Translations under genes and position numbers: made by a program
Shown here: one piece after another, positions 1-61,981 of the stretch
Layout of the letters: each line of letters starts with the position of its first letter
Position numbering within the stretch: position 1 is the stretch's first letter
Assembly: GCF_988242995.1 (NCBI RefSeq)
Contig: NZ_OZ547043.1
Reading direction: 5' to 3' (one strand)
Length of the DNA: 64,000 bases
The notes under the pieces: generated by a model
The model's database searches: none
Told to the model about the DNA's origin: nothing
What the model saw: only the letters and a program-made list of their open reading frames with translations

Positions 1-195
1 ATCCAGTGAAGACACGAGGGGATTTTCTCCGCTTCCTTCTGCCTGGCGGCGGGCGATTTCACCGCGCATGGCGGTTACGATAAATCCGGCATTGCTTTCA
101 CCGTCCAGCTTAACGGATTCCATCCCTTGCATAACATCTAGTGGGACTCTGACAGTTGTCAGTTGTGATTTTGCGTTTTTGTTAGCCGTTGCCAT
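1..195 (-). CDS. Ribbon-helix-helix (Arc/CopG-like) putative repressor, 3'-truncated by window start
   Basis: Reverse-strand ORF starting at ATG 195-193 with AGGAG RBS; translation MATANKNAKSQLTTVRVPLDVMQGMESVKLDGESNAGFIVTAMRGEIARRQ... fits the RHH pattern (N-terminal beta-strand TVRVP then two helices). Not in the ORF track because it runs off the window. Confidence 0.5.
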   Translation of the reverse strand, partial: MATANKNAKSQLTTVRVPLDVMQGMESVKLDGESNAGFIVTAMRGEIARRQAEGSGENPLVSSLD

Positions 196-261
196 TTCTG
201 AAACTCCTAATCATCGGTGTGTTTCAGTATACACAAAAAAAGAAATACAAAAAGCCTTGAC

Positions 262-294
262 GTGTGTTTCATGCGCTCATAACATGAAACACAC
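262..294. promoter_or_regulatory. Perfect inverted repeat (gtgtgtttcatg N9 catgaaacacac) overlapping a TTGACG-N17-TAACAT-like promoter; candidate operator
   Basis: Read directly from sequence; lies between the divergent RHH gene and the rightward small-gene/primase operon. Confidence 0.45.
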
Positions 295-575
295 CGAAAG
301 GATTGTTGAAATACAAAGAGCAACGCCCCGCAGTGCTGGGAACACATACGGGGCGTCTAACCAACAACGTAAACTAGGAGCCGTTATGGTTGCTGTAAAT
401 CATATACCACACCTTGTACACACACAAACGGCCTTTGTGTGGCGTTTTCTGGCACTGAGTGCCGGAGAATCTCAAATCATCCACGTAACCGCCTGGACGG
501 AACGCGAAGCGCGTAGCCGTTGCCCGTCCGGTTGTGTTGCTGTATTCGCTGCAAAAATCCGCCAGGGAGTGAGTC

Positions 576-761
576 ATGCTTAAAACCTTCCGTGTATTTG
601 CCCGAGCTGTTAACCCAATAGGCCACACAATTGGTATCGCTCAGAATGTGAAGGCTGTTAATGTTCAGACGGCTATTGCTGCGGTGAGAAGCGAATCATC
701 AGAATATGGCTTATCACAAGTCATTATTTCAGCAGTGTATGAATTAAAAGAGGTGCATTAA
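576..761 (+). CDS. Hypothetical small protein (61 aa), first gene of primase operon
   Basis: ORF with GGGAG RBS; stop overlaps next start (TAATG). Confidence 0.4.
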   Translation: MLKTFRVFARAVNPIGHTIGIAQNVKAVNVQTAIAAVRSESSEYGLSQVIISAVYELKEVH

Positions 762-952
762 TGCAGGAAATCACATTACACGAAGCCGCTGAACGTGCGC
801 ACCAGACAGAAATTATTTGCCGCCTTCTTGAGGTATATCCGAACAAAATTACAGATGCTGATATATCCGCGCTGGCGAGCCTACTGGCGCGCCTTTCGGG
901 AAGTGTCGCTAGTTTCCTCATTGAGGAAGAAAGTAAGCTGGTGGGGGATTAA
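761..952 (+). CDS. Hypothetical small protein (63 aa)
   Basis: ORF with AAAGAGG RBS, translationally coupled to flanking genes. Confidence 0.45.
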   Translation: MQEITLHEAAERAHQTEIICRLLEVYPNKITDADISALASLLARLSGSVASFLIEEESKLVGD

Positions 953-1174
953 ATGAATACAGAACGGGAAGTCTTTTTTAAATTGTTAGCATGTGCAGAA
1001 AGTTCATTAACTTTAAATAATTCAGCAAAAGCAATATTAAATATGTGGCTTGATTGCATAAATGACAATGAAGATGCAAATATTGCTTATGGCCTGTTGT
1101 CACTTATTGATGAATCAGCAGAAAAACTCAATGACGCAATAAATAGTGCCCTGCTATCAAATAAGTCGAGTTAA
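953..1174 (+). CDS. Hypothetical small protein (73 aa)
   Basis: ORF starts immediately after previous stop; GGGGGA RBS. Confidence 0.45.
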   Translation: MNTEREVFFKLLACAESSLTLNNSAKAILNMWLDCINDNEDANIAYGLLSLIDESAEKLNDAINSALLSNKSS

Positions 1175-1191
1175 GTCGAGGAATAAATAAT

Positions 1192-1491
1192 ATGGAAATG
1201 AAAAATTCTGGCTTTATTGCCAGCGGCCCCGCTCGGCCTGAATTTATGAACGGCGATATTTACCGCGATAAATACGGCGGCACGGTAACGATTAAAGGCG
1301 TGGCAGAACGGCGCATCACTTACCGCCGTGAGGGGTATAGCTATGACTGCGTGATGCCTGTTTATCAGTTCCGGCGTGATTTTTCCCTGGTATATGCCGC
1401 ACCCCGCAGTAAGCCCATCAGCAGGGAAAAAGCGCGGGGAAACATCCAGAAAATGAAAAGCATGATTAACGCATTCAGGGGCAAAAAATGA
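1192..1491 (+). CDS. Hypothetical protein (99 aa)
   Basis: ORF with GAGGAA RBS; stop overlaps primase start (ATGA). Confidence 0.45.
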   Translation: MEMKNSGFIASGPARPEFMNGDIYRDKYGGTVTIKGVAERRITYRREGYSYDCVMPVYQFRRDFSLVYAAPRSKPISREKARGNIQKMKSMINAFRGKK

Positions 1492-3239
1492 AACTGGCAC
1501 CGAACTTAAAAAAACAGCCACGCGACAGACTGACAGAGGTAATCATCTTTGCAGGTAGTGATGCGTGGAGCCATGCGAAAGAGTGGCGGGAATGGGCGGG
1601 TAAACATATTGCCGCCGACGATGTGCCGCCTGTCGTGCTGGCTGATGAGCAACTGAAAAATATCACCGATTACCGGATCATTGATGAAGATCGTCAGTGT
1701 GTGCGTGTTTACCGCGCAGGACATATCACAGAGCACAGCATGACGCAGATTGTTACGTTACTGGCTGTGGCTGGAGTGAAGACCGTACACGAATACGCGG
1801 GGATTACTGACACCAGCCCAGTGGATTTATCCGAGCAGTTGCCGCGACTCAAAGAGGAATGCGAGCGTGGGGAAAGTCTGGTGCTTAATCTTCCGACGAA
1901 GCAAAAGGCGCAACTTTCACAGATGGCAGACAGTGAACGTGCACAACTACTTGCCGATCGCTTTGATGGTGTGTGTGTTCATGCAGAAAGTGAAATCGTC
2001 CACGTATGGCGCGGCGGGGTATGGTGTCCGGTCAGCACAATGGAGCTGAGCCGCGAAATGGTGGCGATCTATTCAGAGCACAGGGCCACGTTCAGCAAAC
2101 GTGTAATCAATAACGCCGTGGAAGCGTTAAAAGTTATTGCCGACCCCATGGGGGAGCCGTCCGGTGATTTGCTACCGTTCACTAATGGTGTGCTTAACCT
2201 GAAAACGGGGGAATTTTCTCCGCACTCGCCGGAGCACTGGAGCACCACGCACAATGGCATTGAGTACACGCCACCAGTAGCAGGGGAAAACATCCGCGAT
2301 AATGCGCCAAATTTCCATAAATGGCTTGAACATGCTGCAAGAAAAGACCCGCGCAAGATGATGCGTATATGTGCCGCGTTATACATGATTATGGCGAACC
2401 GCTACGACTGGCAGATGTTCATTGAGGCCACCGGAGACGGGGGAAGCGGTAAGAGTACATTTACCCATATTGCCACCCTGCTTGCTGGCAAACAGAACAC
2501 CGTAAGCGCGGAGATGACATCACTCGATGATGCAGGAGGGCGCGCGCAGGTTGTCGGGAGTCGTCTTATCGTCCTTGCCGATCAGCCGAAATATACGGGG
2601 GAAGGCACGGGCATCAAGAAAATCACGGGAGGCGATCCCGTTGAAATTAACCCGAAATATGAGAAGCGATTCACGACGATAATAAGGGCGGTGGTACTGG
2701 CAACCAATAACGACCCGATGATCTTTACCGAACGGGCCGGAGGTGTGTCACGCCGTCGGGTGATTTTCCGGTTCGACAACATTGTAAGGGAGGACGAAAA
2801 AGACAAGGAATTACCGGAAAAGATAGCGGCAGAAATCCCCGTAATTATCCGCCGCTTGCTGGCTAATTTTGCTGACCCTGAAAAGGCACGGGCTTTATTA
2901 CTGGAACAGCGTGACGGTGATGAAGCTCTGGCAATAAAGCAGCAAACGGATCCGGTTGTTGAGCTTTGCGCGGCGCTGGAGTTTCTGGAGGAAGCTCGTG
3001 GGCTAATGATGGGCGGTGGTGGTGACACCGTGAAGTACACGACCAGAAACAGCCTTTACCGTGTCTATATGGCCTTCATGGCATACACAGGAAAGGGGAA
3101 ATGTTTGAGCGTGAATGAGTTCGGAAAGGCTATGAGGTCAGCGGCGAAAGTTTACGGATATGAATATATTACGCGAAAAGTTAAGGGAGTCACGCAGACC
3201 AACGCAACGACTACTGATGATTGCGATGCGTTTTTATAA
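1488..3239 (+). CDS. Replication primase-helicase of satellite/PICI type (P4 alpha-like, D5-family P-loop NTPase)
   Basis: 583-aa ORF with Walker A motif GDGGSGKST in the central domain; followed directly by an iteron cluster, as in P4 alpha/crr. Confidence 0.7.
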   Translation: MKLAPNLKKQPRDRLTEVIIFAGSDAWSHAKEWREWAGKHIAADDVPPVVLADEQLKNITDYRIIDEDRQCVRVYRAGHITEHSMTQIVTLLAVAGVKTVHEYAGITDTSPVDLSEQLPRLKEECERGESLVLNLPTKQKAQLSQMADSERAQLLADRFDGVCVHAESEIVHVWRGGVWCPVSTMELSREMVAIYSEHRATFSKRVINNAVEALKVIADPMGEPSGDLLPFTNGVLNLKTGEFSPHSPEHWSTTHNGIEYTPPVAGENIRDNAPNFHKWLEHAARKDPRKMMRICAALYMIMANRYDWQMFIEATGDGGSGKSTFTHIATLLAGKQNTVSAEMTSLDDAGGRAQVVGSRLIVLADQPKYTGEGTGIKKITGGDPVEINPKYEKRFTTIIRAVVLATNNDPMIFTERAGGVSRRRVIFRFDNIVREDEKDKELPEKIAAEIPVIIRRLLANFADPEKARALLLEQRDGDEALAIKQQTDPVVELCAALEFLEEARGLMMGGGGDTVKYTTRNSLYRVYMAFMAYTGKGKCLSVNEFGKAMRSAAKVYGYEYITRKVKGVTQTNATTTDDCDAFL

Positions 3240-3249
3240 AAAATGGCAA

Positions 3250-3485
3250 TGGTTATCTACCTTGTCTACCTGACTGAAAGAAAATACTTTTATTTCAATG
3301 TATTAATGCAGGTAGATAACTATTTTTCACTGTCTACCTGTTATCTACCTTATCTACCCATTTTTGTAGACAGGTAAGGAGACGGGTAGAGATGAGGTAG
3401 ACAGCTATTTGGGGCTGTCTACCTCCCTGAAACCCGCGCCATTACTGGCCTGATAACTAATCAGGTAGACAAGGTAGACAAGGTG
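3250..3485. repeat. Iteron cluster (about 11 copies of 8-bp GGTAGACA / TGTCTACC motif in both orientations); putative replication origin
   Basis: Seen directly: cttgtctacc, caggtagataac, ctgtctacctgttatctaccttatctaccc, gtagacaggt, gaggtagacagc, ggctgtctacctcc, caggtagacaaggtagacaagg. Confidence 0.7.
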
Positions 3486-3528
3486 GTGGTGCACAAAAAA
3501 CTTTTTAAACGAGGGGGTAAAAATAAAA

Positions 3529-3786
3529 ATGCACACATCAGGAAAACTGAACAAACATATAAAGCCACATTACCGCGCCCTTGATATGGCTGAACACTGG
3601 CTAAGGGTGGCGATTAAGGCAATAGACCGCAACGCCGGGGAAGGATACGCGAAAGCACATCCCGAACTGATAAGCGCATTCATGACAACGGCGGCTGCAA
3701 ACTTTGCCACGCTGACCGAACGGGAGATTGCTGAAGCGGAGGAAGTGACAACAATCAATATTAAGTCCGGAGAGCAGGCAGCATGA
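3529..3786 (+). CDS. Hypothetical protein (85 aa)
   Basis: ORF with GGGGGT RBS; stop overlaps next start. Confidence 0.4.
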   Translation: MHTSGKLNKHIKPHYRALDMAEHWLRVAIKAIDRNAGEGYAKAHPELISAFMTTAAANFATLTEREIAEAEEVTTINIKSGEQAA

Positions 3787-4232
3787 CGGCGCAAATATCA
3801 GTTTACGGGCGGTTGGTGGACGACCCGCAGACAAAACAGACCAGCAAGGGCACCCCCATGACGCTGGCGCGTATGGCGGTATCACTGCCCTGCAGTCAGT
3901 CGGATGACGGTCTGGCGACGTTGTGGTTATCTGTCCTGGCGTTTGGCAGACAAGCCGACGCGCTGGCAAAGCATCACAAAGGCGAACTCCTGAGCGTGGC
4001 GGGTAACATGCAGATGAGCCAGTGGACTGGACAGAACGGCGAAACGCGGCAGGGCTGGCAGGTTATCGCAGACAGCGTAATCAGTGCGCGATCGGTGCGA
4101 CCGGGCGGCAAAAAAGGCCAACAGGGGCAGGCTACTGACGCACTGAACAGAGCAAAACAACAGGCAGATCAGCAAGGAAGCCAGCCACCAGAGGGAGATA
4201 ATGAGCAATGGGGAGATGATATCCCGTTTTAA
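3783..4232 (+). CDS. Divergent single-stranded DNA-binding (SSB-like, OB-fold) protein with acidic C-terminal DDIPF tip
   Basis: 149-aa ORF; OB-fold-like core, Gly/Gln-rich linker, and C-terminus ...EGDNEQWGDDIPF matching the canonical SSB partner-binding tail. Confidence 0.6.
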   Translation: MTAQISVYGRLVDDPQTKQTSKGTPMTLARMAVSLPCSQSDDGLATLWLSVLAFGRQADALAKHHKGELLSVAGNMQMSQWTGQNGETRQGWQVIADSVISARSVRPGGKKGQQGQATDALNRAKQQADQQGSQPPEGDNEQWGDDIPF

Positions 4233-4248
4233 ATATTGCCAATAAAAA

Positions 4249-4276
4249 AAGCCGGAAAAAATAAATTTTCCGGCAT
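4249..4276. terminator. Stem-loop gccggaaaa/ttttccggc after SSB-like gene; orientation ambiguous
   Basis: 9-bp inverted repeat with A-run upstream and T-run within/after the stem. Confidence 0.3.
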
Positions 4277-4448
4277 GCTACATAAATCCCGACCAAAGGG
4301 AGTGAAGATATTAACACTAATTGTCCGCACTGAAGTTGTCACCCCAAAACTTTATACAACATTGCACTCGGTTGCATGTGTTCGCATGACAAATATCGGT
4401 GATAGCATATATCCACAATTATTTTTAATGAATGCAAAGAGGATGCGT

Positions 4449-5489
4449 ATGGTTGATTTATATTCGCCTACTCAGCTTGTACAGGTAGTTAATGCTGTAG
4501 ATGTACAAAAACAACTAAATGCGTTATTTACCAGTTTGTTTTTTACTCGCTCGGTAATGTTTGAATCGCGCGATATTATTCTTGATACAATCGACGATCC
4601 AAATATCCCAATTGCAGCGTTTTGTTCTCCTATGGTGGGTAGTAAAGTTTCACGTGACGAAGGGTACGAATCAAAAACAATTCGTCCAGGCTATATGAAG
4701 CCGAAAAGCAGCATTGATCCAAATAAGTTAGCTGTGCGCCCTGCTGGTGTGTCACCTGAGCAATACAATGCTTTTGGGGCGCGTAATATTAAAGTTAAAC
4801 AGGCGATTGTAAATCAGGCTAAAGCTATTCGTGCACGTATTGAATGGCTTGCTGTTCAGGCAATCACAACGGGGAAAAATATCATTGAGGGCGATGGTAT
4901 TGAACGTTATGAGCTGGACTGGAATATAAAACCACAAAATATCATCACTCAGTCTGGCGGTACTGAGTGGTCAGGTAAGGATAAAGAAACTTTTGATCCA
5001 AATGATGATATTGAGAGCTACGCAGAATTTAGTGAGGGCGTCACTAATATCATCATTATGGGTGGTAATGTATGGAAGAAATACCGTTCATTCAGAGCGA
5101 TAAAAGAGGCTTTGGATACCCGTCGTGGTTCTAATTCCGAACTGGAAACGGCCCTTAAAGACCTTGGTGATTCGGTGAGTTTTAAAGGGTATATGGGCGA
5201 TGTTGCGATTGTTGTTTACAGCGGGCGTTATACCGACGAGGACGGAACAGAAAAACATTTCCTTGATCCTGATTTGATGGTGCTTGGCAATACGGCTCTT
5301 CAGGGGATTGTCGCCTATGGCGGTATTCAGGATCCGGAGCTAATCCGAATGGGGCTGACTAAAGCCGAACTTGCACCGAAAAACTATATTGTGCCTGGTG
5401 ATCCGGCTATTGAATATGTGCAGACACATTCAGCACCACAGCCAATACCGGCCCGCATCAATCGTTTTGTTACCGTTCGCATTGGCTAA
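4449..5489 (+). CDS. Major capsid protein, lambda gpE family (divergent paralog, about 50 percent identity to lambda E over the C-terminal half)
   Basis: Start chosen at MVDLYSPTQL with AAGAGGA RBS (the track ORF begins upstream at 4236). Shares blocks ITQSGGTEWS, LDTRRGSNSELETA, GDVAIVVYSG with lambda E. Confidence 0.8.
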   Translation: MVDLYSPTQLVQVVNAVDVQKQLNALFTSLFFTRSVMFESRDIILDTIDDPNIPIAAFCSPMVGSKVSRDEGYESKTIRPGYMKPKSSIDPNKLAVRPAGVSPEQYNAFGARNIKVKQAIVNQAKAIRARIEWLAVQAITTGKNIIEGDGIERYELDWNIKPQNIITQSGGTEWSGKDKETFDPNDDIESYAEFSEGVTNIIIMGGNVWKKYRSFRAIKEALDTRRGSNSELETALKDLGDSVSFKGYMGDVAIVVYSGRYTDEDGTEKHFLDPDLMVLGNTALQGIVAYGGIQDPELIRMGLTKAELAPKNYIVPGDPAIEYVQTHSAPQPIPARINRFVTVRIG

Positions 5490-5498
5490 GGGGGAGCA

Positions 5499-5840
5499 AT
5501 GGCTACTCATTACACTGAACTCATGGCTGGCACTGAAGCACTGGTGACTACGCTGGGGATATTTTCAGCTAATAAAGGGGTAATTCCTGCATTTACGCCA
5601 CTGATGCAGGAAGATGCAACAGGTGCACTGGTGGTATGGGATGGTTCGAGCGTAGGTAAAGCGGTTTATGTTTCCGCTGTACAAATCGACACCGCGAAAA
5701 AAACACAGGCTCAGGTCTATAAGACAGGTGTCTTAAATGTTGATGCTCTGAACTGGCCTGAGTCTGTTAAAGAACTGTCAGTAAAGGTTGCAGCGTTTGT
5801 TGGCTCAGGTATTTCTGTTCAGCCGCTGGCTCGTGTGTAA
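5499..5840 (+). CDS. Head decoration protein, lambda gpD family
   Basis: 113-aa ORF; TPLMQEDATGALVVWDGSS...AAFVGSGISVQ aligns with lambda D TPLMLDTSSRKLVAWDGTT...TAFAGTAISIV. Confidence 0.7.
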   Translation: MATHYTELMAGTEALVTTLGIFSANKGVIPAFTPLMQEDATGALVVWDGSSVGKAVYVSAVQIDTAKKTQAQVYKTGVLNVDALNWPESVKELSVKVAAFVGSGISVQPLARV

Positions 5841-10661: not shown

Positions 10662-11372
10662 GTGCACAGAAAACCCCCAGCTAGGCTGGGGGTTCCGGAA
10701 AGCTTTCAGCTTTGAGCCAGTTATTAAAACCCCTTTTGATTTGTTAAAACACCTTGCGGTCTGGCAACTGCAAGTGTCAAACAAGAAATCAAAAGGGGGT
10801 CCCAATGGGGAACGAAAAGAGCTTAGCGCACACCCGATGGAACTGTAAATATCACATAGTTTTTGCGCCAAAATACCGAAGACAGGTGTTCTACAGAGAG
10901 AAGCGTAGAGCAATAGGCAGTATTTTGAGAAAGCTGTGTGAGTGGAAAAGCGTACGGATTCTGGAAGCTGAATGCTGTGCAGATCATATCCATATGCTTG
11001 TGGAGATCCCGCCCAAAATGAGCGTATCCGGGTTTATGGGATATCTGAAAGGGAAAAGCAGTCTGATGCTTTACGAGCAGTTTGGTGATTTGAAATTCAA
11101 ATACAGGAACAGGGAGTTCTGGTGCAGAGGGTACTACGTCGATACAGTGGGTAAGAACACGGCGAAGATACAGGATTACATAAAGCACCAGCTTGAAGAG
11201 GATAAAATGGGAGAGCAGTTATCGATTCCCTATCCGGGCAGCCCGTTTACGGGCCGTAAGTAACGAAGTTGGATGCAAATGTCAGATCGTGTGCGCCTGT
11301 TAGGGCGCGGCTGGTAAGAGAGCCTTATAGGCGCATTTGAAAAACCTCCGGCTATGCCGGAGGATATTTATT
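10662..11372 (+). mobile_element. IS200 (IS200/IS605 family), about 711 bp, with terminal hairpins
   Basis: Contains the Y1 transposase gene; left-end hairpin cccccagctaggctggggg and right-end hairpin ctccggctatgccggag; boundaries inferred from interruption of lambda U. Confidence 0.8.
10805..11263 (+). CDS. tnpA: IS200 transposase TnpA (Y1/HUH)
   Basis: MGNEKSLAHTRWNCKYHIVFAPKYRRQVFY...HIHMLVEIPPK... matches IS200 TnpA (152 aa). Confidence 0.9.
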   Translation: MGNEKSLAHTRWNCKYHIVFAPKYRRQVFYREKRRAIGSILRKLCEWKSVRILEAECCADHIHMLVEIPPKMSVSGFMGYLKGKSSLMLYEQFGDLKFKYRNREFWCRGYYVDTVGKNTAKIQDYIKHQLEEDKMGEQLSIPYPGSPFTGRK

Positions 11373-17605: not shown

Positions 17606-18144
17606 AAACGGGGGCTGAAGCCATCCGGGCGCTGGCCACACAGCTCCCGGCGTTTCGTCAGAAACTGAGCGACGGCTGGTATCAGGTACGGATTGCCGGG
17701 CGTGATACAGGTGAAACGGAATTATCAGCCCGTCTTAATGAACCGCTGGCAAATGGTGCTGTGATCCATATCGTGCCGCGTCTGGCAGGAGCCAAAAGTG
17801 GCGGTGTGTTTCAGGCTGTGCTGGGGGCGGCTGTTATGGCGGTTGCTATATGGATGCCGGGGGTAGGAATTATGGCGAGTAATCTGCTGTTTTCTCTCGG
17901 TGCCAGTATGACGCTTGGCGGTGTTGCACAGATGCTGGCCCCTAAACCCAAAACCCCCCGCACACAGACAACGGATAACGGCAAACAGAACACCTATTTT
18001 TCTTCACTGGATAATATGGTTGCCCAGGGCAATGTTCTGCCCGTTCTGTACGGTGAAATGCGCGTGGGATCACGTGTGGTATCTCAGGAGATCAGCACAG
18101 CAGATGAAGGTGATGGTGGTCAGGTTGTGGTGATTGGTCGCTGA
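17503..18144 (+). CDS. I: Tail tip assembly protein I
   Basis: MAATHTLPLASPGMARICLYGDLQRFGRRIDLRVKTGAEAIRALATQLPAF... matches lambda gpI; overlaps K by about 100 nt. Confidence 0.85.
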   Translation: MAATHTLPLASPGMARICLYGDLQRFGRRIDLRVKTGAEAIRALATQLPAFRQKLSDGWYQVRIAGRDTGETELSARLNEPLANGAVIHIVPRLAGAKSGGVFQAVLGAAVMAVAIWMPGVGIMASNLLFSLGASMTLGGVAQMLAPKPKTPRTQTTDNGKQNTYFSSLDNMVAQGNVLPVLYGEMRVGSRVVSQEISTADEGDGGQVVVIGR

Positions 18145-59966: not shown

Positions 59967-60409
59967 TTATGTTGGCGTTTTCTATTCAGTATAGAAGTGG
60001 GAGCGACTGGGCGAGATGCGGAAGTTCTGGAATGTTTCTTTTTTTTGGTGATGGTGAACTGATTGTGACTGAAGAAGTTTGGCTACTTCTGCAATGTGAC
60101 AAGTTATGGCAGAGCTGGCTGGTGGCGAAGAATTTTGACGATTGAGGCATGCAGAAAAAAACGGGTTCAGCTTCAGTTGATCAAATGAGGAGTGAGAAGT
60201 CCGAAACAGGACTCGCTGTATAAATAAACAGCTATTTTGCTGAGGAAGGGTAAGATAACGGCGGGTGCCTGAAGCTTTCCGGTTTCAGGTTTACTCTGAG
60301 GTCTGGAAAGATGAAGCCCCAGGAGATATTTCTATCAACCCTGGGGCTGCCACTCCAAACCCAAACAATTTGGATGGTAGTCCCTTCTTCGCATGGAGGC
60401 AATATAAAC

Positions 60410-60562
60410 ATGCTGACGAAATATGCCCTTGCGGCAGTCATAGTGCTGTGTTTGACGGTGCTGGGATTTACGCTTCTGGTCGGAGACTCGCTGTGTGAGT
60501 TTACGGTGAAGGAACGTAATATTGAGTTTAAGGCTGTTCTCGCTTACGAACCGAAGAAGTAG
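60410..60562 (+). CDS. hokE: Hok-family toxin (50 aa), copy 1
   Basis: [50 protein letters not shown]; upstream in-frame mok-like extension from 60311. Confidence 0.8.
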
Positions 60563-60912
60563 CCGTTGTGCGGGGAGTAATCCCCGCATATCCGGTTGTC
60601 AGGTCAGGGTGGTAAGGCACCTGTTTTACACTTTCGCCCGCGGTCAGCAATGGCTGCGGGCGATTTCGTTTTACGAGCAATAACGAGTGTTGCCAACAGA
60701 AGTCCGAAACAGGATTTACTGTATAAATAAACAGTTATTTTGCTAAGGAAGGGTAAGATAACAGCGGGTGCCTGAAGCTTTCCGGTTTCAGGTTAACTCT
60801 GAGGTCTGGAAAGATGAAGCCCCAGGAGATATTTCTATCAATCCTGGGGCTGCCACTCCGAACCTCAACAACTCGGATGGTAGTCCCTTCTTCGCATGGA
60901 GGCAATATAAAC

Positions 60913-61065
60913 ATGCTGACGAAATATGCCCTTGTGGCAGTCATAGTGCTGTGTTTAACGGTGCTGGGATTTACGCTTCTGGTCCGCGACTCGCTGTGTG
61001 AGTTTACGGTAAAGGAACGTAATATTGAGTTTAAGGCTGTTCTCGCTTACGAACCGAAGAAGTAG
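60913..61065 (+). CDS. hokE: Hok-family toxin (50 aa), copy 2
   Basis: [50 protein letters not shown]; upstream mok-like extension from 60814. Confidence 0.8.
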
Positions 61066-61807: not shown

Positions 61808-61981
61808 GTCGACCATATTAGAGAATGATGACAAACGCAAAACTGCCTGATGCGCTACGCTTATCAGGCCTACGTGGTCCTGCAATGTATTGAATTGGCA
61901 AGATTTTTGTAGGCCGGATAAGGCATTCACGCCACATCCGGCATGAATTACGCGCACTTTGTCAACAATCTGACGTTAGCA

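Follow-up and report, generated by a model that had tools for sequence, protein, structure and literature searches.

The 64,000-nt stretch of DNA analyzed here (the window; coordinates are window positions unless a locus is named) is part of an Escherichia coli chromosome with 100% identity to NZ_CM142689.1, in whose RefSeq annotation the region under study lies near the left end of a mobile element. Positions 196–583 are best explained as the immunity and early-control region of a Gram-negative phage-inducible chromosomal island (PICI) inside a lambdoid prophage. The region would act as a two-layer switch, in which a divergently encoded repressor and its operators are combined with a short cis-antisense RNA over the Icd-like gene that opens the early operon (hereafter icd). 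The probability of this explanation is put at roughly 0.62. The silencing and switching-on of Gram-negative PICIs are poorly understood, and the region offers a concrete and testable repressor/operator/antisense-RNA immunity module. The module is also widespread: the 87-nt RNA region (307–393) has a blastn match in 1188 of 5426 complete E. coli genomes, with prophage Sp7 of O157 Sakai (OI-51/CP-933C) among the carriers, and several enterobacterial genera besides Escherichia have the module. Homologous loci, designated by L-numbers, were gathered from E. coli genomes, other genera, and viral contigs, the last being a far richer source than a profile scan of genome contigs (7 loci). L001 is the window's own element together with the DNA to its left.

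A minus-strand hairpin and a predicted antisense RNA over icd

The initial annotation had taken 196–575 for about 380 bp without a convincing open reading frame (ORF), a description that had to be abandoned. By sequence comparison, the product of 386–583 is homologous to Icd of P1 and Kil of P4: residues 17–60 match the Icd-like family NF033153 of NCBIfam with 63.7 bits against a cut-off of 25, and the protein can be aligned with P4 Kil. The next gene starts within the last codons of icd (ATG at 576), and the intergenic gap proper measures 190 bp (196–385). In the phage database, the Icd-like protein matched one record, the satellite-like vB_KppS-Ant.

The hairpin upstream of icd is present with its flanks in ∼90 distinct leaders from E. 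coli, Rahnella, Pectobacterium, Superficieibacter, and Intestinirhabdus. BLAST places a mosaic breakpoint at ∼313, just beyond the U-rich tail; the hairpin and everything to its right are common to elements with quite different upstream modules. In a MAFFT alignment of 57 distinct sequences (alignment A4), RNAalifold predicted 17 pairs, and compensatory double changes affect 9 of these. In all, 97.7% of the cells were paired, compared with 39%–48% in slid registers, and the observed values were reached in none of 500 shuffles. On the minus strand, the 13-pair hairpin comprises 619 Watson-Crick and 98 G·U cells; on the plus strand, the same 98 cells are A·C or C·A mismatches, and the number of G·U pairs is zero. 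When folded on both strands, the hairpin was more stable on the minus strand in 85 of 91 variants (mean −24.7 versus −18.3 kcal/mol), and over 87 variants the mean z was −4.8 for the minus and −1.9 for the plus strand, the minus strand being lower in 86. The 10 nt that follow the stem contain on average 5.25 U on the minus strand versus 1.26 on the plus strand. The structure of the hairpin is under strand-specific selection, acting on the minus strand. RNA folding and covariance analysis across homologues, the check proposed with the initial annotation, came out in favor of a hairpin at 323–356 that is conserved with compensatory changes across genera.

The leader itself had been described as hairpin-dense, which does not apply to the plus strand as a whole; its fold is not unusually structured (z = −1.06). 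The two stem-loops singled out at that time are real, each with a perfect 8-bp stem (323–330/349–356 and 421–428/434–441), but the first belongs to the other strand and the second lies inside the icd coding sequence. The second is terminator-like by scan and invariant in one subfamily, that with the HTQTAFVW peptide. It shows no covariation, is missing where the peptide differs, and was rejected as a conserved RNA element. The −35 of the predicted antisense promoter falls within its 5′ arm.

The conserved hairpin, its U-tail, and a conserved −10 element therefore predict a transcript of ∼80 nt (∼392→313). This RNA would consist of a 5′ stem-loop (391–359) with the anti-Shine-Dalgarno sequence CUCCU in a 12-nt loop, the hairpin 357–322, and the U-rich tail GCUCUUUGUAUU (321–310), and it would be fully complementary to the icd leader, Shine-Dalgarno sequence, AUG, and codon 2. 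The minus-strand sequence 392–310 folds into two hairpins with a minimum free energy of −33.6 kcal/mol (z = −4.27; none of 200 shuffles was as stable). Conservation extends to the 5′ stem-loop and to the GGU(U/C/A)AG spacer, with the G·U pairs of helix 1 again confined to the minus strand, and the largest class of predicted folds, 51 of 87, leaves the anti-Shine-Dalgarno sequence unpaired. The covariance model of the RNA, R1, scores 80.4 bits at 307–393 on the minus strand, the sole copy in the window. The stem of the hairpin reaches about −20 kcal/mol or better on the minus strand and leads into a U-rich tail, the makeup of an intrinsic terminator. By its complementarity, the RNA would block translation of icd through occlusion of the ribosome-binding site. 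No family in Rfam 15 matched it on either strand, the phage database held no match to the RNA region, and a literature search by name, locus tag, and raw sequence found no description of this RNA; R1 provides a basis for adding it to Rfam as a family.

The candidate promoter of the antisense RNA is the best minus-strand σ70-like site near the icd start, and its place is class specific: among 88 variants, 52 have the 3′ end of the −10 at ATG+13 and 15 have it at ATG+7. Among variant elements, the −10 reads TATGAT, TATGCT, or TAGACT and the −35 TTGTGT, CTGATA, or CTGAAA, with a 17-nt spacer. All 46 distinct icd 5′ ends retain the TAnnnT form of the −10 despite H/S/Y/C substitutions, and the codon that gives the −11 A is always NNT (CAT 33, TCT 9, TAT 3, TGT 1), never CAC, TAC, or TGC. 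In the second icd class, the −10 lies 6 nt nearer the ATG, with a corresponding shift in where the RNA's 5′ helix begins. A conserved −10 that moves with the helix start indicates that the predicted cis-antisense RNA has a promoter of its own.

Putative operators and the divergent YlcI/YnfO-family gene

To the left of the hairpin lies the perfect 12-bp inverted repeat already noted in the initial annotation. Its arms, GTGTGTTTCATG (262–273) and CATGAAACACAC (283–294), are separated by a 9-nt spacer, and shuffling the 190-bp gap 2000 times produced a 12-bp arm once. One more copy of the motif, TCGGTGTGTTTCA at 214–226, had been overlooked; it agrees in 13 of 13 positions with the inverted sequence of 285–297 and brings the number of half-sites within 80 bp to three. 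The σ70-like promoter said to be overlapped by the palindrome was also recovered: TTGACG and TAACAT, 17 nt apart, score 13.3 bits with our own position-weight matrix, for which 10.5 bits are reached in just 1.9% of random 100-nt windows. The location of the third half-site at the leftward −10 and the 5′ untranslated region (UTR) of the divergent gene suggests that the repressor may regulate its own synthesis. On the plus strand, A(G/C)TATAC is also found in loci with different operators (L002, L003, L012, and L015).

Comparison of the loci argues for the proposed immunity/operator function. In all collected homologous loci, a −35 of the form TTGAC(A/G) is immediately followed by a twice-repeated motif, inverted or direct, that brackets the −10. 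The position of this promoter-proximal repeat is fixed across ∼48 upstream types, while its sequence is different in each, as exemplified by GTGTGTTTCA, GTGATTCA, GGTAATTACC, GTGGTCACCT, ATGTACGTACGT, and GTGTAAGACAC; third copies are seen elsewhere too, such as GTGATTCA, which occurs three times in L003. Two unrelated small-protein families occupy the divergent position, one YlcI/YnfO-like (“KSxxxxxR(V/F/I)P”) and one Arc-like (“PxFQxRxxPEL”), and the motifs track the N-terminal segment of these proteins one-to-one or like-to-like. Proteins with a common short N-terminal segment have the same or a similar half-site, even where the rest of the protein has diverged. Such co-variation is the pattern of interchangeable immunity modules and supports the reading of the repeats as operators, each motif going with its own variant of the divergent protein. 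The minus-strand ORFs 207–347 and 269–367 overlap this hypervariable operator zone and were dismissed. In elements of the Arc-like type, for example L005 (O145), the start codon of the repressor gene overlaps the rightward −35 (TTGACAT, reversed ATGTCAA). A further exact half-site, GGTGTGTTTCA, occurs far from the control region at 17803–17813 on the plus strand; it is probably fortuitous, because ∼1.2 matches with at most one mismatch are expected by chance in the window.

The divergent gene of the window extends past the left edge to a full length of 101 codons. Its start codon is at 195–193, and its Shine-Dalgarno sequence, AGGAG, is the complement of 204–208. The product matches NCBIfam NF041551 (YlcI/YnfO family) with 64.4 bits against a cut-off of 30, and phrog_6522 of PHROGs with 214 bits. 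Among 40 YlcI-type homologues, 28%, 21%, and 52% of the substitutions fall on codon positions 1, 2, and 3, respectively, a skew that therefore marks it as a real gene. In an AlphaFold2 monomer model (pLDDT 76), residues 1–18 form a coil, followed by helices 19–28 and 35–54 and then a long helix. From the tracking of motifs and N termini, it is inferred that the protein binds the repeats as a repressor.

In the proposed mechanism, the YlcI/YnfO-family protein would bind three GGTGTGTTTCA half-sites, the inverted pair (262–294) and the single site at its own promoter (214–226). Binding would shut the early operon, which comprises icd, three small genes, an RgdR homologue, and a P4-type primase, and would autoregulate the repressor. 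In the second layer, the leftward promoter within the first icd codons would yield the ∼80-nt RNA that ends at the hairpin. With its exposed anti-Shine-Dalgarno loop, this RNA would pair across the Shine-Dalgarno sequence and AUG of leaky early transcripts and leave the putatively toxic first gene untranslated. The downstream replication operon would also be held down through overlapping, coupled genes (ATG 576 inside the end of icd). Upon derepression, the strong rightward promoter would supply sense transcripts in excess of the antisense RNA, and the antisense promoter would suffer interference from convergent transcription; in an alternative induced state, transcripts from upstream would be translated through the region.

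Table 1. Features of the control region, with those deduced from sequence named as putative or predicted
Feature	Position	Strand	Remarks
YlcI/YnfO-family gene (putative repressor), 5′ part, 65 codons	1–195	−	NF041551; RefSeq WP_000179577.1
Long frame in phase with icd, 243 codons	2–583 (L001 5852–6583)	+	Begins at L001 5852, 149 nt left of the window; stop-free; antisense through the repressor gene, then through operators and antisense-RNA gene
Putative operator half-site O_L, TCGGTGTGTTTCA	214–226		Adjoins leftward −10 and 5′ UTR of the repressor gene
Predicted leftward (repressor) promoter, −10 TATACT	226–231	−	Best minus-strand site on that side, 6.5 bits; −35 weak
Predicted rightward early promoter	257–285	+	−35 TTGACG 257–262, 17-nt spacer, −10 TAACAT 280–285; predicted start ∼291–293
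Putative operator inverted repeat	262–294		Arms 262–273 and 283–294, 9-bp spacer; covers promoter spacer, −10, and transcription start
Predicted cis-antisense RNA, ∼80 nt (∼392→313)	310–392	−	Fold, covariation, G·U asymmetry, model R1
Terminator-type hairpin of the antisense RNA	322–357	−	Stem 323–330/349–356; placed at ∼324–357 on the other strand in the initial annotation
Shine-Dalgarno sequence of icd, AGGAG	376–380	+	Five nt upstream of ATG 386; in most variants, a small conserved hairpin has it in the loop
Icd-like gene, 65 codons, first of the early operon	386–583	+	NF033153; RefSeq WP_001390072.1; P4 Kil alignment
Predicted antisense promoter	399–427	−	−10 TATGAT 404–399, 17-nt spacer, −35 TTGTGT 427–422; in the first 14 icd codons; predicted start ∼391–393
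8-bp hairpin in icd (codons HTQTAFVW)	421–441	+	Subfamily specific; overlaps predicted antisense −35

Counterarguments and competing explanations

Several points weigh against the two-layer explanation. The ∼80-nt minus-strand RNA is itself deduced from sequence. The −35 elements of its candidate promoter are weak, the 10.5-bit score taken alone has a background probability of ∼0.02, and in the second icd class the score is just 4.6–5.2 bits. The U-tract is interrupted (stem, G-C/U-N, then the U-run) and falls short of a textbook terminator, and a simple terminator scan did not call the full hairpin (322–357). Covariation of the 5′ stem-loop is modest within a class, and the sequences share ancestry, so that covariation counts exceed the number of independent events. 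The divergent protein had been called a ribbon-helix-helix (RHH) repressor. From the modeled coil-helix-helix N terminus this remains plausible, and the gene is under coding constraint, but support for the RHH fold did not come from Pfam (PSK_trans_fac alone, weak at E = 0.079), from phmmer against the PDB (nothing found), or from Foldseek of the model against the PDB (no match).

Among the competing explanations, an unlikely one is that the minus-strand hairpin is a mere terminator or insulator against stray leftward transcription into the operator/repressor unit, and that the RNA is nonregulatory. The terminator-like anatomy of the minus strand agrees with this. So does L005, an element of the Arc-like type from O145, in which manual reading of the segment ∼55–135 nt upstream of the icd ATG finds a candidate leftward promoter, TTGATT-16-TACAAT, right after the hairpin. 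The layout there is extremely compact, the −35 TTGATT overlapping the U-tail of the antisense terminator. An insulator would not, however, explain why conservation, with minus-only G·U pairs, includes both the 5′ stem-loop and the spacer GGU(U/C/A)AG, why the anti-Shine-Dalgarno sequence is so often left unpaired (51/87 folds), or why a dedicated −10 is conserved at synonymous sites. Moreover, whatever RNA is made there must be fully complementary to the icd ribosome-binding site.

It is very unlikely that the hairpin functions in the plus-strand mRNA leader, be it as a processed immunity RNA of the C4/CI kind, as an attenuator, or as a stabilizing 5′ structure. This was the idea of the initial annotation, and it draws on the strong promoter that would transcribe the leader, on the position of the C4/CI RNAs of P4 and P1 on the sense strand upstream of kil/icd, and on the weaker hairpin that still forms on the plus strand. 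Against it, C4 RNA (RF01695), isrK, and c4-a1b1 gave no match on either strand at E ≤ 10 in 150–650 or 1–4000. C4 and isrK were likewise missing at E ≤ 1 from L001 3300–6700 (the int to icd zone) and from the whole window at the Rfam gathering score, whereas the positive controls for C4 (P4, L010, and L154) scored 75–80 bits. Permissive Rfam scans (1–4000 and 150–650) and the gathering-score scan of the window returned only chance miRNA/lncRNA matches in the region. On the plus strand, furthermore, the 98 wobble positions are mismatches, the z-scores are near background, no U-tract follows the hairpin, and the ∼94-nt leader is too short for a C4 RNA with both of its target sites. What remains of the suggested analogy with P4 CI is a conserved structure of a predicted regulatory RNA; homology to C4, CI, or isrK was not found, and selection acts on the opposite strand, as for a cis-antisense RNA.

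Loci that lack the hairpin are instructive in this respect. In P4, the sense strand upstream of kil bears C4/CI and isrK-type elements, and the hairpin-less Icd-like loci L010 (E. albertii) and L154 carry C4 and isrK. Three others, L167, L172, and L173, have different upstream sequences, those of L167 and L172 without an Rfam match. Apart from these three, the icd/kil homologues appear to be preceded by either the trans-type C4 RNA system or the cis-antisense arrangement. Judged from these comparisons, some form of RNA control is the rule for icd/kil at this position.

The PHROGs phrog_1743 and phrog_6196 (Icd-like) are labeled “transcriptional repressor,” a label that was not used here and may mislead automated annotation. 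It may trace to an old protein annotation of the P4 cI region: NC_001609 still annotates a “transcriptional repressor / cI gene product,” and the C4/CI RNA maps inside that ORF.

That the region is simply coding, for a long Eta- or Bro-like protein running from upstream through icd, with the hairpin conserved as protein sequence, is hard to credit. A long plus-strand frame that reaches the hairpin does exist in 46 of 48 distinct upstream types, with a length of 75 codons or more as measured from just 5′ of the hairpin; 31 of these frames share the phase of icd, 12 are in frame 1, and 3 are in frame 2. Among 58 distinct genes of the YlcI type, a codon that precedes His or Gln ends in T in 0 of 311 cases (19% expected), and one that precedes Tyr ends in T or C in 0 of 12. 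The unrelated Arc-like family gives a corresponding count of 0 of 82, and the corresponding figures for 617 control genes from the same loci are 28.5% and 57.5%. The avoided dicodons are exactly those that make stops in the antisense frame, and the frame is therefore kept open by selection. Such avoidance at synonymous sites of the repressor gene is evidence of unusual clarity for selection acting on an overlapping antisense frame. Long forms are sometimes called in PGAP or older annotations (L009, ECs_1576), and there is a precedent in P4, where eta, a long frame sharing the phase of kil, traverses the internal promoter and the CI region, and its translation from the upstream promoter prevents termination. 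A coding function alone, however, is at odds with L002, L004, and L006, in which the frame is closed just upstream of an intact hairpin, and with base pairs that covary while the “peptide” changes. The long-frame products matched no family in PHROGs or Pfam, the one exception being L153 with a Bro-N/Ant fragment of 30 residues; the first ATG of the window's long frame lacks a Shine-Dalgarno sequence, and an open frame leaves the G·U asymmetry and the U-tail unexplained.

Translation of an ORF at 68–583 had been named in advance as an argument against the operator and leader-RNA interpretation, and this argument holds in part: the 3′ third of the ORF is icd, and the rest is a frame kept open by selection that may be translated. 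A translated long frame that adds a layer to the two-layer switch, and does not replace it, is a real possibility, if one short of even odds. An eta-like bypass through this frame is reasonable but unproven. By analogy with P4 eta, ribosomes on transcripts from an upstream helper-activated promoter would translate through the region and override both the antisense RNA and Rho-dependent polarity. Doubtful, though worth stating, is the wider proposal of a family of PICIs with an undescribed three-part switch, in which an antisense RNA replaces C4/CI, repressor and operator modules are interchangeable, and an open frame is selected. If this were true, there would be two routes to replication, and the codons of the repressor gene would be constrained on both strands.

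Finally, it is most unlikely that the hairpin acts as DNA, as a cruciform or a single-strand initiation/replication signal for the P4-type primase: single-stranded DNA hairpins also tolerate G·T mismatches and the element does encode a P4-family primase, but an iteron-rich candidate origin lies elsewhere (3250–3480, downstream of the primase gene), and the hairpin is tied to the icd ribosome-binding site, the U-tail, and the −10, not to iterons.

Setting of the element and relation to known systems

The gene order of the element is integrase, AlpA-type helix-turn-helix (HTH) gene, YlcI/YnfO-family gene (minus strand), icd, three small genes, DUF4222 gene, P4-family primase, SSB, major capsid gene, and head-decoration gene, the last two forming its right end (4236–5840). 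It is directly preceded by prophage genes for portal, S49 protease, decoration, and a partial major capsid protein; the truncated capsid gene lies immediately 5′ of the integrase gene, and the insertion is in the major-capsid gene of a lambdoid prophage (L001 1–4703, left of the window). The annotated layout of the identical locus agrees with the description of helper-embedded Gram-negative PICIs (PMC10111431).

The DUF4222 gene of the early operon (1192–1491, plus strand) is a homologue of ECs_1581 at the corresponding position of O157 Sakai Sp7. RgdR (ECs1581), which is encoded on this related O157 island (OI-51/CP-933C/Sp7), was reported to be an activator of the type III secretion system of the enterocyte effacement locus (LEE) (PMC3378721). 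With an RgdR homologue in the controlled operon, control by the switch may extend to a virulence regulator.

Copies of GGTAGACA and TGTCTACC are numerous in the gap that follows the primase gene (3250–3480), which also has two longer repeats of 19–30 nt. This gap is probably the iteron-type replication origin of the satellite, a placement downstream of the primase being that reported for PICIs. To the left of the window, between the alpA-type gene and ylcI (L001 4932–5890), lie ∼950 bp without an annotated gene, whose content is just one hydrophobic 103-codon ORF on the minus strand and which gave no Rfam match. Elsewhere in the window, Rfam matches above gathering score are STnc490 (10672–10795, plus strand, 146 bits), two sok antitoxin RNAs (60263–60418 and 60766–60921, plus strand, 85 and 82 bits), and ES036/CssrF (61866–61907, minus strand, 41 bits).

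With Gram-negative and helper-embedded PICIs (PMC10111431; PMC6092414), the element shares int, the alpA-type HTH gene, a variable “Bro” zone, the primase, and late genes. Like the published 11capE element, a helper-embedded PICI in capsid gene E (PMC10111431), it sits in the lambdoid capsid gene E and has a capsid gene of its own. Published accounts of PICIs describe AlpA as an activator and C4-type immunity RNAs in some elements, some Bro zones carrying C4/isrK immunity RNAs (PMC10111431). The words “operator,” “hairpin,” and “YnfO” are absent from the description in PMC10111431, and its “repressor” passages concern other systems, which suggests that the repressor-operator-antisense module is undescribed in that account.

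The first gene, Icd/Kil, is homologous to that of P1 immI (c4, icd, ant) and of P4 (P_LE, seqA, CI, seqC, kil/eta). In those systems, as predicted here, an RNA that masks the ribosome-binding site of the first gene restrains the downstream operon, and the open long frame of the present region echoes eta, which runs through the promoter/RNA region in phase with kil. In contrast, the C4/CI RNAs (RF01695) are of the trans type, processed from the sense strand, and have separate a/b target sites, whereas the RNA described here is predicted to be encoded in cis, on the opposite strand, and to have a promoter and a terminator of its own. A protein repressor with operators, proposed here, has no counterpart in P4.

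A different set of parallels is offered by immI of phage P22 (mnt, O_mnt/P_ant, arc, sar RNA, ant), which was reportedly characterized in the Susskind laboratory in 1987. Mnt is said to be a divergently encoded repressor of the RHH fold whose operator overlaps a strong promoter, and sar, reportedly from the same laboratory and year, to be a cis-antisense RNA of ∼68 nt, made from a convergent promoter inside the operon, that covers the ribosome-binding site of the regulated gene. The likeness lies in the small divergent putative repressor, the promoter-overlapping operator, and the short cis-antisense RNA over a ribosome-binding site. The regulated gene here, however, is icd/kil-like and not ant, and there is no sequence or Rfam relationship; the predicted antisense RNA lies over the first gene of a satellite replication operon, and the repressor families (YlcI/YnfO and Arc-like) are interchangeable modules.

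In type I toxin-antitoxin systems such as symE/SymR and hok/Sok, a short cis-antisense RNA covers the 5′ UTR and start codon of a gene for a small growth-inhibiting protein. The predicted RNA would likewise cover the 5′ region of its target, but this target heads a replication operon under repressor control. The combination of a cis-antisense RNA with a repressor is thus known in kind as an immunity control of phages and satellites, and the region described here would represent an unannotated, widespread form of it.

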